A DNA stretch of 8,465 nt. It comes from a virus. Its lineage: Duplodnaviria > Heunggongvirae > Uroviricota > Caudoviricetes. The notes under the pieces were generated by a model, which had not been told where the DNA came from, ran no database searches, and saw nothing but the letters and a program-made list of their open reading frames with translations. Shown piece by piece: positions 2,497 to 4,980 of the stretch. Location of the stretch: IMG/VR virus record IMGVR_UViG_2671180454_000010; one strand, 5' to 3'. The translations under genes and the position numbers were made by a program. Numbering within the stretch: position 1 is the stretch's first letter; every line of letters starts with the position of its first letter.

Positions 2497-2528
2497 AAAA
2501 GCCCTAAACATAATCTGTGAAGGGCTTT
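2497..2528 (-). terminator. GCCCU/AGGGC hairpin with U-tract (hairpin A, module 1)
   Basis: Stem GCCCT (2501-2505) / AGGGC (2521-2525), extendable to AAAGCCCT/AGGGCTTT; minus-strand transcript continues UUUUCUUAAU. Loop 15 nt. Near-identical to the hairpin at 4768-4791. Confidence 0.35.
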
Positions 2529-2600
2529 GGAGGTTTGCTTATAACGTTAACGAAGTTTCAGGAAAACTTTCTTTAAAAGCTCTGTTTAAAAACTCTTAAA

Positions 2601-2627
2601 GAAAGCCCTAACTCATGATTAGGGCAA
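2601..2627 (-). terminator. GCCCUAA/UUAGGGC hairpin with U-rich tail (hairpin B, module 1)
   Basis: Stem GCCCTA (2605-2610) / TAGGGC (2620-2625) with a 9-nt loop; on the minus strand followed by UUUCUUUAAG. Immediately 3' of the conserved core. Confidence 0.35.
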
Positions 2628-2633
2628 AGCTGT

Positions 2634-2745
2634 AAAGGATTCAATAATGAATGAACAAAGACTTTTTGAGATAGCCTCTCAGACCAACCTGAAAGGCTAG
2701 GACGAAAAGCATTGCACCTTTCCAACTCAGAATATCCATTCATCG
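2634..2745 (-). repeat. conserved non-coding element, copy 1 (candidate structured RNA or leader)
   Basis: 112 bp aligning to 4792..4905 with 4 substitutions and one 2-nt indel. The two copies do not share a reading frame across the indel, so the conservation is not protein-coding. Lies upstream of the 236-aa ORF. Confidence 0.7.
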
Positions 2746-2832
2746 CGCGGGCTAGCTCTTCCGCGCTGGCATTATTAATGCTGACCCGATGAGGTGTACT
2801 GGCAATAGCGGACACTACCATTTGTTCTTTTT

Positions 2833-3651
2833 TTAAGCAGCCATCTGATGATATTTTTCCCTGAAGGCTGCCGGGGAGATATTCCCCAGACGAGAGTGAC
2901 GACGCTGACGATTGTAGAAAATCTCAATGTATTCCCGTATTACTGAGATGGCTTCATCCCGGTTATTAAAACGATAGTGGCTCAGGCTCTCATTTTTCAG
3001 CGTTCCCCAGAAGCTTTCCATCGGAGCGTTGTCGTAACAGTTACCTTTACGCGACATTGATGTTTTCAGACCAGACTGCTCCTGTATGACCCGGTAATCG
3101 TATGCGCAGTACTGTGAACCTCGATCAGAGTGGTGGATTAGCCCGGCAGGTGGGCGCTGGCTCCTGAGCGCCATAAACAGGGCTTTACCTGTCAGCTCTT
3201 TTGTCATGCGCTCTCCCATGGCGTAGCCGACAATTTCGCACGTATAAACATCTTTGATGCCAGCGAGGTACAACCATCCCTCCTGTGTGGCAACATACGT
3301 CAGGTCCGCCACCCAGACCTGATTTGGTGCTGTAGGAGCGAACGTCTGGTTCAGCAGATTTGGCGCAACTGGCAGATTGTGGTTCGAGTTCGTAGTCGCT
3401 CTGAACTTGCGTTTCTGCTTACAGCGTAGCCTTAGCTCCTTACGAAGACGTGCCAGTCGGTCACGACCAACGATGATGCCATTCTCTGCCAGCTCCGTCT
3501 GGAGCCGCCGGGTTCCATATGTTTCGCGAGTGCGGATATGTGCCACCTTAATCTCCAGTTTTAGCCGCTCATCACTTTGTTTTCTGTCTGAGGGTTCATG
3601 CTGTACCCAGTTGTAATAACCGCTCCTGGATACACCAAATACCTGACACAT
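2833..3651 (-). CDS. IS3-family transposase OrfB (catalytic DDE domain), expressed as OrfAB fusion
   Basis: 272 aa from the first ATG. The same frame is open upstream to the A7 slippery site and is -1 relative to orfA. Integrase-like catalytic region typical of IS3-family OrfB (…HSDRGSQYCAYDY…RKGNCYDNAPMESFWGTLK…). Confidence 0.85.
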   Translation of the reverse strand: MCQVFGVSRSGYYNWVQHEPSDRKQSDERLKLEIKVAHIRTRETYGTRRLQTELAENGIIVGRDRLARLRKELRLRCKQKRKFRATTNSNHNLPVAPNLLNQTFAPTAPNQVWVADLTYVATQEGWLYLAGIKDVYTCEIVGYAMGERMTKELTGKALFMALRSQRPPAGLIHHSDRGSQYCAYDYRVIQEQSGLKTSMSRKGNCYDNAPMESFWGTLKNESLSHYRFNNRDEAISVIREYIEIFYNRQRRHSRLGNISPAAFREKYHQMAA

Positions 3652-3686
3652 CGCTTCAATGGGAAATTGTTGTCGCCATTGTTCGA

Positions 3687-3989
3687 TTAACGCGTATTTT
3701 TCAGCGACTCCTGTGCAAAATACGCTGTTGCTTTTTTTAATATATCTCGCTCAAGGCGAGCTTCATTTAACGCCTTACGCAGTTGCAGAATTTCAGATTC
3801 CAGTTCAGCCACCGTGCGGGAACCAGGAGTACCGAGCCCTTTTCTGGCGGCGGTAACCCATTGTCCTAAAGTGCCTTCAGGAAGAGATAATCGGGAAGCG
3901 CCTTCACTGATCGAAAGTTGATTTTCAGGAACCGTTCTGACAGCTTCGGCTTTGAACTCTTTAGAGTAACGTTGGGTTTTTCTGCTCAT
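3687..3989 (-). CDS. IS3-family transposase OrfA (HTH plus leucine-zipper-like region), 100 aa
   Basis: ATG at 3987-3989 with AGGAGC upstream. C-terminus (…ILQLRKALNEARLERDILKKATAYFAQE…) typical of IS3-family OrfA; ends just after the frameshift hairpin. Confidence 0.85.
   Translation of the reverse strand: MSRKTQRYSKEFKAEAVRTVPENQLSISEGASRLSLPEGTLGQWVTAARKGLGTPGSRTVAELESEILQLRKALNEARLERDILKKATAYFAQESLKNTR
3692..3739 (-). promoter_or_regulatory. programmed -1 ribosomal frameshift site of the IS (A7G slippery run plus downstream hairpin)
   Basis: Minus-strand TTA AAA AAA G (complement of T-run 3732-3738) in the orfA frame; slipping -1 reads …SNSVFCTGVAEKYALIEQWRQQFPIEAMCQVFG… into OrfB. A 9-bp stem GCGUAUUUU/AAAAUACGC (3692-3725) starts about 6 nt downstream. 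Confidence 0.6.
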
Positions 3990-4040
3990 TATTAGCTCCT
4001 TCTGATGCCATTCTATTTCAGGAAGGAGTGTCCGTTAAAC

Positions 4041-4652
4041 TCAGGCTACCTCACTAATCAGCTTAGCCAGTCTTGATTTCAGCAAATTAATCTCATTTTC
4101 TCTTGCTTTCATCAGTTTCTCTTTGGCAATTTCTTCAAGCTCAGCTTGTGATTTATCAGCAACAATTAGAGACAGTCGATGTGGTGCTCTGACAGCTCTT
4201 TCTGTACGAACAACTCTTTGACCTTCTGGTAAATCTGCAATCACTTTACCAATCTCTACAGGGTCATACCCCCAACCGTCACGGTCTAGTCGAGAGAAAT
4301 AAGCATAAGAATTGGTTTGAAGCTCCATCGAAATAACCATTTCGTCAATTTCGTCTTCAAGCTTGGACTGAATTTTCTCGTAAACACTTCTCATTGCTTC
4401 TTGAGAGTCTTTAATAGCTTGGAAATATCGGCGTTGTAGCTTCAACTTCAAATCAAGTTCACACCGTTCGTTCATAGAAAAATCAATTTCAACTCTTGGA
4501 ATCTCGAGTGGTTCTGGTGGAATATATGGACCTTTATTTACTTCGTGTGATTCCCGCCAAGCTCTATCAAAAGATTCACGCAAAGTTAATTCGTGAATAT
4601 CAAGTGCACTTGGTCTGTGTTCGATAAGCATTTCATGTTCATTTCTAATCAT
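4041..4652 (-). CDS. hypothetical acidic protein, 203 aa (paralog of 1687..2397); 3' end formed by the IS terminus
   Basis: ATG at 4650-4652 with AAGGGGTGA 5 nt upstream. Homologous to the 236-aa ORF (see above). The last 4 codons and the stop (4041-4053) lie inside the IS terminal inverted repeat, and the protein is about 30 residues shorter at the C-terminus than its paralog. Confidence 0.6.
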   Translation of the reverse strand: MIRNEHEMLIEHRPSALDIHELTLRESFDRAWRESHEVNKGPYIPPEPLEIPRVEIDFSMNERCELDLKLKLQRRYFQAIKDSQEAMRSVYEKIQSKLEDEIDEMVISMELQTNSYAYFSRLDRDGWGYDPVEIGKVIADLPEGQRVVRTERAVRAPHRLSLIVADKSQAELEEIAKEKLMKARENEINLLKSRLAKLISEVA

Positions 4653-4691
4653 TCGTTCACCCCTTAGTTTATTTGTTATTTCAATTTATAG

Positions 4692-4752
4692 AAGCACACT
4701 CAGCAATCAGAGGTGAAGAGTCTGACTGAACAAGAACCTGCCAAGTGTGCTT
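4692..4752 (-). promoter_or_regulatory. long-range inverted repeat in the leader of the 203-aa ORF
   Basis: Perfect 9-bp arms AAGCACACT (4692-4700) and AGTGTGCTT (4744-4752) separated by 43 bp; same position and geometry as the 2425..2496 repeat but unrelated sequence. Confidence 0.3.
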
Positions 4753-4791
4753 TTAAAAACTGAAAAAGCCCTAAACATTTCTGTGAAGGGC
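4751..4791 (-). terminator. GCCCU/AGGGC hairpin with U-tract (module 2)
   Basis: Stem GCCCT (4768-4772) / AGGGC (4787-4791), 14-nt loop; minus-strand transcript continues UUUUUCAGUUUUUAAAA. Directly abuts the conserved core. Confidence 0.4.
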
Positions 4792-4905
4792 AAAGGATTC
4801 AATAATGAATGAACAAGAGTACTTTTTGAGATAGCCTCTCAGACTAACCTGAAAGGCCATGACGAAAAGCATTGCACCTTTCCAACTCAGAATATCCATC
4901 CATCG
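4792..4905 (-). repeat. conserved non-coding element, copy 2 (candidate structured RNA or leader)
   Basis: 114 bp, about 95% identical by eye to 2634..2745; upstream of the 203-aa ORF. Predicted terminal helix 5'-GAUGGAUGGAUA (4904-4893) with UGUUCAUUCAUU-3' (4815-4804), plus internal hairpins GAAAGG/CCUUUC and GAGA/UCUC. Confidence 0.7.
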
Positions 4906-4910
4906 GATTA

Positions 4911-4942
4911 TTGAAAGAAAAATAAGAGAGAATTGCTCTCCC
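4911..4942 (-). terminator. hairpin GAGAG-CAAUU-CUCUC with U-rich tail
   Basis: Stem 4926-4930 / 4936-4940; the minus-strand transcript continues UUAUUUUUCUUUC. Could terminate the upstream 107-aa ORF transcript or be the first structure of the element's own transcript. Confidence 0.35.
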
Positions 4943-4951
4943 ATAATTAAA

Positions 4952-4980
4952 ATTATGCCATGCTTAAGGTTATTTGTCAA
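4952..4980 (-). promoter_or_regulatory. candidate sigma70 promoter facing the copy-2 element
   Basis: Minus strand TTGACA (4980-4975), 17-nt spacer, CATAAT (4957-4952): 11 of 12 consensus positions. Predicted start near 4945. Confidence 0.35.

Follow-up and report, generated by a model that had tools for sequence, protein, structure and literature searches.

Genes and features at the locus

The window, that is, the whole stretch of 8,465 nucleotides that was analyzed, contains two copies of a repeat on the minus strand, each followed by hairpins and by a gene of the same coiled-coil protein family (Table 1). The first-pass annotation had described the repeat cores at 2634-2745 and 4792-4905 as differing by four substitutions and a 2-nt indel, and this was confirmed: 2634-2658 and 4792-4816 are identical at 25 of 25 positions, 2661-2745 and 4821-4905 share 95% identity over 85 nt with four substitutions, and the 2-nt length difference falls between these two blocks. 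A covariance model built from other loci matched exactly two places in the window, 4795-4893 (copy 2, 112 bits) and 2637-2733 (copy 1, 108 bits), both on the minus strand. The repeats of a diversity-generating retroelement were considered and rejected; the substitutions read C>T, T>C, G>T and T>C (plus strand, from copy 1 to copy 2), and no RT-like ORF was found in the window.

Table 1. Positions of the RNA copies, hairpins, genes and insertion sequence in the window
Feature	Coordinates	Strand	Remarks
236-aa gene, A-type allele	1687..2397	-	Coiled-coil protein of unknown function
Long hairpin, 22-nt arms	2422..2499	-	Directly upstream of the ribosome-binding site of the 236-aa gene; inverted repeat I3, 91% complementary
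Terminator-like hairpin t2, after copy 1	2525-2494	-	Resembles the copy 2 terminator
Terminator-like hairpin t1, after copy 1	2625-2598	-	Called by terminator scan
RNA body, copy 1	2634..2745	-	Without promoter, P0 and most of module 2
P3, copy 1	2661-2710	-	Inside RNA body 2634..2745
Invariant 20-mer, copy 1	2703-2722	-	Inside RNA body 2634..2745
ybaV fragment (chromosomal gene)	2736..2789	-	100% match over 2736-2788
IS3-family insertion sequence	2790..4053	-	Outside the RNA element; two ORFs typical of the IS3 family
Gene B, B-type allele of the coiled-coil protein	4054..4652	-	3' end removed by the IS
Long hairpin, 27-nt arms	4679..4765	-	Between the terminator and the gene B ribosome-binding site; inverted repeat I2, 81% complementary
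Intrinsic terminator, copy 2	4755..4791	-	GCCCUUCACAGAAAUGUUUAGGGC then U5CAGU5; read from sequence
3' module, copy 2	4792..4820	-	(CAUU)n and UUGAAUCC
P3 long hairpin, copy 2	4821..4870	-	Basal GCUUUUCG/CAAAAAGU and 10-13 bp apical stem
Invariant 20-mer GAAAGGUGCAAUGCUUUUCG, copy 2	4863..4882	-	
Variable module 2, class 2a, copy 2	4893..4921	-	U-rich linker, CAAUAAUCC, (GAUG)n
P0, 5'-terminal hairpin, copy 2	4922..4944	-	Starts at about +3 of the predicted transcript
Sigma-70 promoter (predicted), copy 2	4952..4980	-	TTGACA, 17-nt spacer, TGgCATAAT (extended -10)

The minus-strand reading of the repeat was borne out by its fold, which reaches -57.4 kcal/mol (z -4.4) with G-U pairs in the stems, compared to -42.3 on the plus strand. 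A conserved ORF or leader peptide, with an SD-like AAGGUG and an AUG inside the invariant motif, was rejected because the frames opened by the only conserved AUG vary from 5 to 35 codons (5, 12, 23 or 35) among variants; the repeat is non-coding, as had been proposed. A riboswitch, also suggested before, is unsupported: the RNA core had no match in Rfam 15 (E-value mode), and the sole Rfam match at E<=1 was a plant miRNA model at 4671-4773, outside the core (25.8 bits versus a gathering score of 90). No tRNA or tmRNA was detected in the window by ARAGORN, and none of 50,697 phage records searched by BLASTN matched the core.

Copy 2 is a complete minus-strand unit that runs from the promoter through the 5' hairpin, the invariant 20-mer and P3 to an intrinsic terminator. 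The promoter scan of 4980-4952 found 11 of 12 consensus positions plus the TG. The bounds drawn for this copy in the first-pass annotation, which had overlooked the promoter and 5' hairpin as well as the IS and the truncations, were too narrow, as the conserved unit extends to 4980. Its recognition of GCCCU...AGGGC hairpins with a U-tract after each core (2625-2598, 2525-2494 and 4791-4755) holds, and so does its small RNA or leader layout, with the unit ending at an intrinsic terminator. The terminator hairpin module of copy 2 recurs in many loci, and no further minus-strand promoter was predicted by the sigma-70 scan from the terminators to either start codon. The repeat is probably the body of a structured non-coding RNA, some 170-190 nt long (about 180 nt), with a transcription unit of its own.

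The proteins encoded downstream of the two copies are, as estimated earlier by eye, about a quarter identical (25% identity over 156 aa, E=2e-17). The listed 203-aa ORF, which terminates within the IS at 4041, is not a whole gene; it derives from a 234-aa gene truncated by the IS3-family element at 2790-4053, and the intact homologue (L001, 14898-15602) aligns with window positions 4051-4642 at 98%. Searches of Pfam, NCBIfam, PHROG and PADLOC assigned no family to the 236-aa protein. Its AF2 model (pLDDT 79.6) consists mostly of long helices, with generic coiled-coil hairpins as the only fold matches. The database name of this protein, "transposase", was rejected, as neither a transposase domain (Pfam/NCBIfam) nor a corresponding fold match was found; it occurs merely as a propagated label. 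The protein family is tiny, with 18 representatives among 1.84 billion proteins. The suggested link between the core and this family was upheld: the RNA was found ahead of every homologue of the coiled-coil protein and lies upstream in 11 of 11 loci retrieved through the protein. The same RNA is freely combined with three protein types. It is followed by a co-oriented operon encoding the coiled-coil protein, a 69-aa protein, a tape measure protein and a Dit-like protein.

Two decayed islands in one window

The window consists of parts of two copies, both decayed, of an integrative island of 11-12 kb, joined through IS rearrangements. It holds pieces of two islands and therefore two RNA copies, which are alike because both islands share the family-wide RNA, with different alleles (A and B) of the neighboring gene. 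What had been taken for paralogues in one genome behind a constrained upstream element are thus two mobile-island copies with different mosaic-gene alleles. Nor is the non-coding sequence held unusually constant, since the RNA core averages 79% pairwise identity across the family. This case shows that mosaic mobile elements can produce a pattern of non-coding sequence more conserved than coding sequence without selection within one genome.

Copy 1 is a promoterless remnant that lost its promoter and 5' end at the junction with the ybaV fragment. Its upstream edge at 2745 does not mark a natural boundary: 2736-2788 is 100% identical to E. coli ybaV, and 2736-2745 (CGAUGAAUGG, minus strand) is a 10-bp microhomology common to the ybaV fragment and the island. 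Native island sequence at this point reads ...AAUAAUCCGAUGAAUGGAUAUUC... In genomes matching window positions 1-2745 at 100% identity, the sequence beyond that point carries an intact promoter and 5' hairpin, and the intact version of copy 1 is present in loci L145-L150. The junction is a one-off microhomology join, absent from other genomes. The adjacent IS, which we take to be IS600-like, matches IS copies from 91 phage records at 99.8% identity.

The RNA gene is a fixed component of this island family of Escherichia and Shigella, located ahead of the tail-gene block. Among the products of the island genes are a large serine integrase, a replication initiator, a tape measure protein and a Dit-like protein, the last sharing 70% identity with a Felixounavirus protein; given this gene content, it is probably a satellite of Felix O1-like phages. 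In intact islands, the RNA region is internal, several kb from either end, with the integrase gene at one end and iterons 2.4 kb from the RNA gene. Upstream, the RNA gene adjoins a conserved ORF for a 23-aa hydrophobic peptide (5082-5011, minus strand), and upstream proteins of 108, 139 and 96 aa belong to no Pfam or PHROG family. Of 5426 complete E. coli genomes, 473 (about 9%) contain the RNA, which is annotated in none of them; it also occurs in very many Shigella assemblies. Species-representative genomes yielded a single further locus, in E. albertii, and the family is therefore narrow. Terminal overlaps, a sign of circular molecules, were not found in 12-kb metagenome contigs. Our literature search found no mention of an 18-mer of the RNA and no link of Felix O1-like phages with satellites.

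Conservation, structure and modularity of the RNA

About 100 homologous RNA copies, 72 of them distinct, were collected, with one copy per locus. TTGACA is retained in all copies but one; of 88 distinct sequences, 74 have CATAAT and 13 have GATGAT as the -10 element. A P0 hairpin of 5-10 bp forms in the fold of each of the 46 distinct 5' segments, with compensatory changes in three of eight pairs (RNAalifold). The 20-mer, which is predicted to be single-stranded, is intact or carries a single 1-nt deletion both in copies retrieved by BLAST (L010-L013) and in those retrieved through the protein (L134-L144), as well as in pattern-retrieved copies.

RNAalifold did not detect P3 in a MAFFT alignment, in which the loops were misplaced, but P3 was recovered with the covariance-model alignment. 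The check for covariation that had been proposed earlier shows that P3 is kept with compensatory changes. All 31 distinct P3 sequences examined fold alike; across the 72 distinct RNA sequences, pairing of the apical helix is maintained in 99.4% of cells, and four of its ten pairs change on both sides. The covariation score was 0.167 versus 0.111 in shuffles, none of 500 of which reached 0.167, and was at most 0.059 when the partners were slid out of register.

Between these constant parts, the RNA is modular. Module 2 occurs in three alternatives (2a, 2b and 2c in 35, 30 and 17 of 82 distinct cores, respectively), with one to five copies of GATG, and the 3' module also has three alternatives, with zero to four copies of CATT. 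In copy 2, module 2 and the 3' module correspond to the 5' and 3' strands, respectively, of a terminal helix enclosing two hairpins that had been proposed for the repeat. This helix appears in the minimum-free-energy fold of copy 2 but is absent as a family feature: the expected number of 5'-3' pairs is 11.4 in class 2a, against 1.6 in 2b and 0.1 in 2c; recombination between the 5' and 3' modules is free, without coupling (Cramer V 0.11); and the copy number of (GATG)n shows no co-variation with that of (CATT)n. Downstream of the RNA, one to three intrinsic-terminator hairpins and then a long hairpin precede the operon in modular combinations, the long hairpin being of the type found before gene B (hpB) in 53 of 90 loci and of the type found before the 236-aa gene (hpA) in 36.

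A possible terminated leader of the tail-gene operon

Judging from its sequence and position, the likeliest role of the RNA would be that of a terminated leader that gates the tail-gene operon; our confidence in this, which jointly covers a structured RNA gene of the island family, is moderate. Transcription from the strong promoter would mostly be stopped at the terminators, and the product would be a stable small RNA. Continuation past the terminators into the tail genes would be conditional, via antitermination or attenuation, and plausibly triggered during helper-phage infection. The RNA unit would in that case form a checkpoint between the maintenance module and the tail module of the island. 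In line with such a role, the RNA directly precedes the operon in the same orientation, terminator hairpins are stacked before the operon, no other sigma-70 promoter was predicted there, and no target in trans was found in the island or in the genome of a Felix O1-like phage. On the other hand, no antiterminator gene was recognized in the island, a leader role alone leaves the invariant single-stranded 20-mer unexplained, the closest satellite precedent, SviR of PLE, works in trans, and a helper-specific promoter invisible to the sigma-70 scan might drive the downstream genes. We found no conserved alternative antiterminator pairing; a GAGUUGG/CAGCUU pairing was rejected, as its apparent compensatory change was a single case without co-variation on the full set.

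Several phage leaders resemble this arrangement. In the late leader of lambda, which comprises PR', the 6S RNA and tR', operon expression requires read-through. The island similarly has a strong promoter directly upstream of a structural operon, a predicted transcript of about 190 nt and an intrinsic terminator about 200 nt downstream. However, no Q-like protein was recognized near the island promoter (Pfam and PHROG searches, including the 108-, 139- and 96-aa proteins), the initial transcribed region is predicted to form hairpin P0 where lambda-type leaders have a Q-binding element and a sigma-70-dependent promoter-proximal pause, and the RNA body is under structural selection, a property not known for the lambda 6S RNA. 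P4 immunity involves the P4 PLE leader and the CI RNA and needs complementarity of seqB to seqA/seqC within the leader. P4 is a satellite, as is probable for the island, and its constitutive promoter and structured leader give a stable small RNA by premature termination before an operon, but the island leader showed no internal complementarity above chance and no sequence similarity (Rfam). The put RNA of HK022 mediates processive antitermination in cis, with put sites of about 70 nt made of two adjacent stem-loops. The promoter-proximal stem-loops before the island terminators could also act in cis without a protein factor; the architecture of put sites is unlike that of the island RNA, and a put-like function here is a candidate only.

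Alternative explanations

The main rival, which we rate as somewhat unlikely, is a purely trans-acting base-pairing sRNA, with the operon having its own promoter and the terminators merely ending the RNA gene. The 20-mer and/or the 3' AU-rich module would serve as seeds against island, host or helper-phage mRNAs. A discrete unit from promoter to terminator with a stabilizing 5' hairpin, and an invariant unpaired motif between exchangeable structured modules, are what such an sRNA would have, and there is a precedent: SviR, a 210-nt sRNA of the Vibrio cholerae satellite PLE, has its own promoter and intrinsic terminator and is conserved in all ten PLEs, whereas its neighbors are variable (bioRxiv 10.1101/2022.04.08.487710). 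The island RNA is similarly about 200 nt long, encoded by a probable satellite, equipped with a predicted promoter and intrinsic terminator, intergenic beside variable genes and conserved across all element variants, and the candidate helper is likewise a virulent myophage. There is, however, no homology between the two RNAs in sequence or structure. The seeds and targets of SviR are known, whereas no target of the island RNA was found in the sequences scanned, and the SviR promoter is induced by infection, whereas that of the island RNA looks constitutive and the helper dependence of the island is presumed. Complementarity was at chance level in each of the sequences scanned: antisense matches to the rest of the island did not exceed chance; duplex energies with the 210 nt that hold the upstream peptide gene did not exceed those of shuffles in 40 loci (mean z +0.29); the longest helices with the downstream leader equaled those of shuffled controls (about 10-11, G-U allowed); and matches to the genome of Felixounavirus EC6 were only 11-12 nt long (E about 1-4). 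Moreover, blastn-short and the covariance model detected no similarity of the RNA to the EC6 genome above chance, and no consistent motif of the T4-like late promoter type emerged from a search of EC6 and of the leader.

It is very unlikely that the repeat has no RNA function and is a conserved linker serving as a homologous-recombination hinge between mosaic modules, its likeness stemming from recent descent or gene conversion. The patchwork of small alternative modules with sharp borders, the pairing of the same RNA with three protein types, and the decay of module association with distance, as predicted for frequent recombination, would agree with a hinge. Yet a hinge would require neither P0 and P3, which are kept by compensatory base changes, nor the strand-specific fold given by G-U pairs, nor the conserved flanking promoter and terminators.

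We consider it highly improbable that the RNA is a partner of the adjacent protein, either in a type III toxin-antitoxin-like pair or as an RNA bound by the coiled-coil protein. The order of promoter, RNA, terminator and protein gene is that of type III loci, the three terminator hairpins lying between RNA and protein gene, and the RNA and the protein family always co-occur. Nevertheless, tandem repeats of about 34-36 nt, typical of type III systems (ToxIN, CptIN, TenpIN), are absent from both cores, the only tandem array being a 13-nt unit at 2563-2596, outside the core; no endoribonuclease of the ToxN, AbiQ, CptN or TenpN type was detected (Pfam, NCBIfam, PADLOC and the AF2 model, a coiled-coil hairpin without a nuclease fold); and the variable RNA modules are independent of protein type (Cramer V at most 0.18). 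Just as improbable is a role as a DNA-level site (packaging site, attachment site or origin) or as the type I antitoxin of the small hydrophobic peptide encoded upstream, suggested by the end of one copy at the recombination junction (2745) and by the peptide ORF beside the RNA gene, given that this junction is a single event, the region is internal in intact islands and away from the iterons, the candidate helper genome has no similarity, and the peptide region shows no excess complementarity.

Implications for the island family

A broader and more speculative proposal, which we consider unlikely at present, is that E. coli and Shigella harbor an undescribed phage satellite family parasitizing virulent Felix O1-like myophages, with the RNA as its core regulatory RNA. 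As a helper-responsive switch or a dual cis/trans regulator, it would time the production of the satellite tape measure and Dit-like proteins, by which tail assembly of the helper would be taken over. If so, these satellites would be the coliphage counterpart of PLE and ICP1. The unannotated structured RNA would extend the catalogue of known mobile-element RNAs. It is a marker, and probably a control point, of a compact island whose gene content is limited to an integrase, a replication module and two tail-assembly genes related to those of Felix O1-like phages. Should this island prove to be a satellite of virulent coliphages, it would offer a tractable E. coli model of satellite-helper conflict and its RNA-based control, and would have a bearing on typing and therapy with Felix O1-like phages.

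Rearrangement of the window and origin of the repeat

The window is a rearranged part of a Shigella-type chromosome. The repeat reported in the first-pass annotation was recovered between the two loci: 2634-2658 (copy 1) and 4792-4816 (copy 2) are identical, and 2661-2745 and 4821-4905 share 95% identity over 85 nt, with a 2-nt offset between the two blocks. The downstream ORFs of 236 and 203 aa are also homologous, as had been judged by eye (25% identity over 156 residues, E=2e-17), and a repeat search of the window found no further long repeat linking the two regions. Behind the 203-aa ORF is a 234-aa gene that lost its 3' end to the IS. 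Window 2788-6282 recurs at 100% identity in a viral-database contig (L008), where lambdoid prophage genes stand to the left of the IS instead. Window 1-2745 is matched at 100% by complete genomes encoding the exact 236-aa protein, and past 2745 these genomes differ from the window in carrying an intact promoter and 5' hairpin. This exact protein is recorded in 4271 blocks of the collection, and its close homologues bear Shigella names. The identities of the IS, of the chromosomal ybaV fragment and of the flanks thus indicate that a single mobile element is present twice in the window, each time in part (E1 and E2), the two copies being linked via the ybaV fragment and the IS. The upstream edge of copy 1 is a rearrangement junction rather than a functional boundary. 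Island and ybaV (54 bp at the join) meet in the 10-bp microhomology CGATGAATGG (minus strand), and this junction was seen in no other genome examined; it stems from illegitimate recombination or, with lower probability, from faulty assembly.

Features of the window and of the RNA unit
Feature	Position	Strand	Remark
Island copy E1	1-2745
IS630 match	1-53
Tape measure gene of E1	21-1298		425 codons
236-aa ORF (A-type allele)	1687-2397	minus
Long hairpin before 236-aa gene	2499-2422	minus	copy 1
Terminator hairpins	2625-2598, 2525-2494	minus	copy 1
Island/ybaV microhomology	2736-2745
ybaV fragment	2736-2788		100% identity
IS3-family element	2790-4053		99.8% identity to copies in 91 phage records
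203-aa ORF (gene B, B-type allele)	4041-4652	minus
Island copy E2	4054-8465
Hairpin with 27-bp arms	4765-4679	minus	copy 2; then ribosome-binding site of gene B
GCCCU...AGGGC hairpin and U-tract	4791-4755	minus	copy 2
AU-rich 3' module	4820-4792	minus	copy 2
Long hairpin P3	4870-4821	minus	copy 2
Invariant 20-mer GAAAGGUGCAAUGCUUUUCG	4882-4863	minus	copy 2; preceded by motif AUUCUGAGUUGG
Variable module	4921-4893	minus	copy 2
5'-terminal hairpin P0	4944-4922	minus	copy 2; begins at about +3
Promoter TTGACA-17-TGgCATAAT	4980-4952	minus	copy 2; 11/12 consensus, extended -10 TG
23-aa peptide ORF	5011-5082	minus	own SD
Iterons	7374-7436		within replication-initiator gene

The RNA unit and its homologues

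Copy 2 is a complete unit on the minus strand, of which copy 1 retains only the portion from 2745 down. The suggested layout of a small RNA or leader holds, each core being followed by a terminator hairpin with a U-tract. For copy 2, the RNA is predicted to be 185 nt long and folds at -57.4 kcal/mol (z -4.42, with no shuffle as good), and its complementary strand at -42.3. The unit is also non-coding as proposed: no ORF is conserved, and the AUG in the 20-mer opens 5, 12, 23 or 35 codons. The A and B alleles of the downstream coiled-coil gene each have a different long hairpin (arms of 22-27 bp) in front of them, which stops about 20-30 nt short of the start codon; cleavage by RNase III or an additional block to transcription could be the role of these hairpins. 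Ahead of the -35 element of the RNA promoter, 22 nt are 79% like the region upstream of a second minus-strand TTGACA promoter heading the 96-aa and 139-aa genes (compared stretches 4974-5001 and 6341-6368), a likeness that suggests a shared UP element or regulator site.

Homologues were collected by three independent routes (BLASTN, exact-pattern scans of viral and metagenome contigs, and protein-based searches), and chance 18-mer matches, recognised by the absence of all other unit features, were discarded. By BLASTN, the unit is present in 473 of 5426 complete E. coli genomes at 69-97% identity and annotated in none of them. It lies upstream in all 11 loci encoding relatives of the 236-aa protein in the protein-based search. 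Among the 88 distinct promoter-to-core sequences obtained, the promoter is almost invariant and the body combines alternative modules like a mosaic: about five versions of P0, three of the exchangeable module 2 (2a with GAUG repeats, 2b and 2c), at least four of P3, three of the 3' module, several terminator/hairpin modules, and, in some sequences, an inserted hairpin with ATTCTGA repeats on either side.

Each of the 46 distinct 5' segments folds into P0, with compensatory changes, and P3 forms in single-sequence folds of all 31 distinct versions. A covariance model built from ten sequences detects a single copy at each locus and two copies in the window. In the apical P3 helix, 99.4% of cells across 72 distinct sequences are paired, in an alignment that was fitted to this model and so leans towards structure, although the independent single-sequence folds agree. 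Four of its ten pairs vary on both sides (31 cells), and its covariation score of 0.167 compares with 0.111 for shuffles (0/500 reach it) and at most 0.059 for slid partners. The basal P3 helix is uninformative because it is nearly invariant.

Recombination, selection and the terminal helix

The first-pass annotation took the high conservation of non-coding relative to coding sequence as a sign either of selection on an RNA or DNA function or of recent gene conversion. The contrast of 95% with 25% arises because two islands happen to share similar RNA modules and carry different alleles of a mosaic gene, not from unusual constraint within one genome. Across the family loci, mean pairwise identity of the RNA core is 79%. 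The downstream gene in 100 loci is of type A (at least 80% identity to the 236-aa protein of the window) in 26, of type A' (50-80%) in 49 plus one at <50%, and of type B in 24. Gene type and RNA modules vary independently (V at most 0.18), and modules are less associated the farther apart they lie. The region surely also serves as a recombination hinge, a role close to the recombination boundary named among the earlier candidates, but compensatory changes, strand asymmetry and the kept promoter and terminators show that an RNA is under selection.

The terminal helix proposed earlier (GAUGGAUGGAUA with UGUUCAUUCAUU) does occur in the minimum-free-energy fold of copy 2, and its single substitution changes G-U (copy 2) to A-U (copy 1), but the helix is confined to module class 2a. 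Expected 5'-3' pairs from the partition function are 11.4 for 2a, 1.6 for 2b and 0.1 for 2c. Every combination of 5' and 3' modules occurs (Cramer V 0.11), and the complementary tetranucleotide repeats show no parallel rise in copy number (rho -0.32). The helix may thus form in the window copies, with no selection on it visible. Across loci, (GATG) at 4893-4904 varies from 1 to 5 copies and (CATT) at 4804-4815 from 0 to 4, which looks like slipped-strand variation.

The island family and its proteins

Homologous E. coli DNA forms islands of 11-12 kb, inserted at yecE (L001, 9618-20982) or in the tonB/yciI interval (L002, 8682-20363). Along the minus strand of the window, the intact island encodes a Dam methyltransferase, an O-like replication initiator whose gene contains iterons, a number of small ORFs (by annotation an HNH endonuclease in one case), a 108-aa ORF, a 23-aa hydrophobic peptide, the RNA unit, the 236/234-aa protein, a 69-aa protein, a tape measure protein, a Dit-like protein and a large serine integrase convergent with the remaining genes. 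No capsid or terminase genes were found in the island. The Dit-like protein shares 70% identity with gp046 of Felixounavirus EC6, whose gene comes after the EC6 tape measure gene, and the tape measure proteins of the island and EC6 are 29% identical over the full length of the island protein. From these sequences, we infer that the island is probably a satellite of Felix O1-like virulent myophages.

Both copies in the window are decayed. The E1 tape measure gene was cut short by the IS630 copy, and intact homologues in L001 and L002 have about 690-720 codons. The iterons (GGTGACATTTTGTC-like, 22-23 bp apart) number three in the window and four in L001; one iteron fewer shifts the frame and breaks the 306-aa initiator gene up into two ORFs (129 and 124 aa), so that E2 is likewise decayed. 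The ORF of the 23-aa peptide (MGLIIAWTLLGLFVGCIINNAVNK) runs over the stop codon of the 108-aa gene and lies just ahead of the RNA promoter; the peptide is kept with variants in the other loci and could act as a small membrane toxin or in the manner of a holin. In E. coli 2011C-4315 (NZ_CP024479), yecE carries both the island and a lambdoid prophage with a tyrosine integrase and is in three pieces (L001 7824-9547 and 20982-21329). This strain and strain 4012 (NZ_CP103626) are examples with an intact island.

The 236-aa protein belongs to no family in Pfam, NCBIfam, PHROGs or PADLOC. Its AF2 model is confident, with long helices and a small alpha/beta part, and matches only generic coiled-coil hairpins such as prefoldin and FliJ. 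The name 'transposase' (NCBI, UniRef) is unsupported, there being no transposase domain or fold. Given its position in front of the tape measure gene, the protein may be an assembly chaperone.

Possible functions of the RNA

Ahead of the tail-gene operon lie, in order, a very strong promoter, the structured RNA and between one and three terminator hairpins. Terminated-leader units include lambda PR'/6S/tR' and P4 PLE/CI. Judging from this layout, we give about an even chance that the RNA is the terminated leader of the tail-gene operon: most transcripts would stop at the terminators, yielding a stable small RNA, with conditional read-through as the sole route into the operon. A sigma-70 scan found no further minus-strand promoter from the terminators to either start codon. 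The unit resembles both systems in logic; however, a Q-like gene as in lambda was not found in the island, nor seqA/B/C complementarity as in P4 in the RNA unit. The main rival, a trans-acting sRNA, is less likely, and is compatible with a leader role. On that view the RNA would resemble SviR of PLE, which is likewise conserved, bounded by a terminator and encoded by a satellite, with a length of about 210 nt (bioRxiv 10.1101/2022.04.08.487710); no complementarity above chance was detected against the island, the upstream peptide region, the downstream leader or phage EC6. A leader role would not by itself account for the invariant 20-mer. A search of Rfam matched no family, which leaves the riboswitch-like identity considered earlier unsupported. 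A type III toxin is an unlikely identity for the 236-aa protein, and no tandem repeats occur in the RNA core.

A literature search found no paper on such a satellite of Felix O1-like phages. While its functional role is proposed from the layout, the mobile island does contain a genuine structured RNA gene or leader that had escaped annotation, and the island is probably more novel than the RNA itself.
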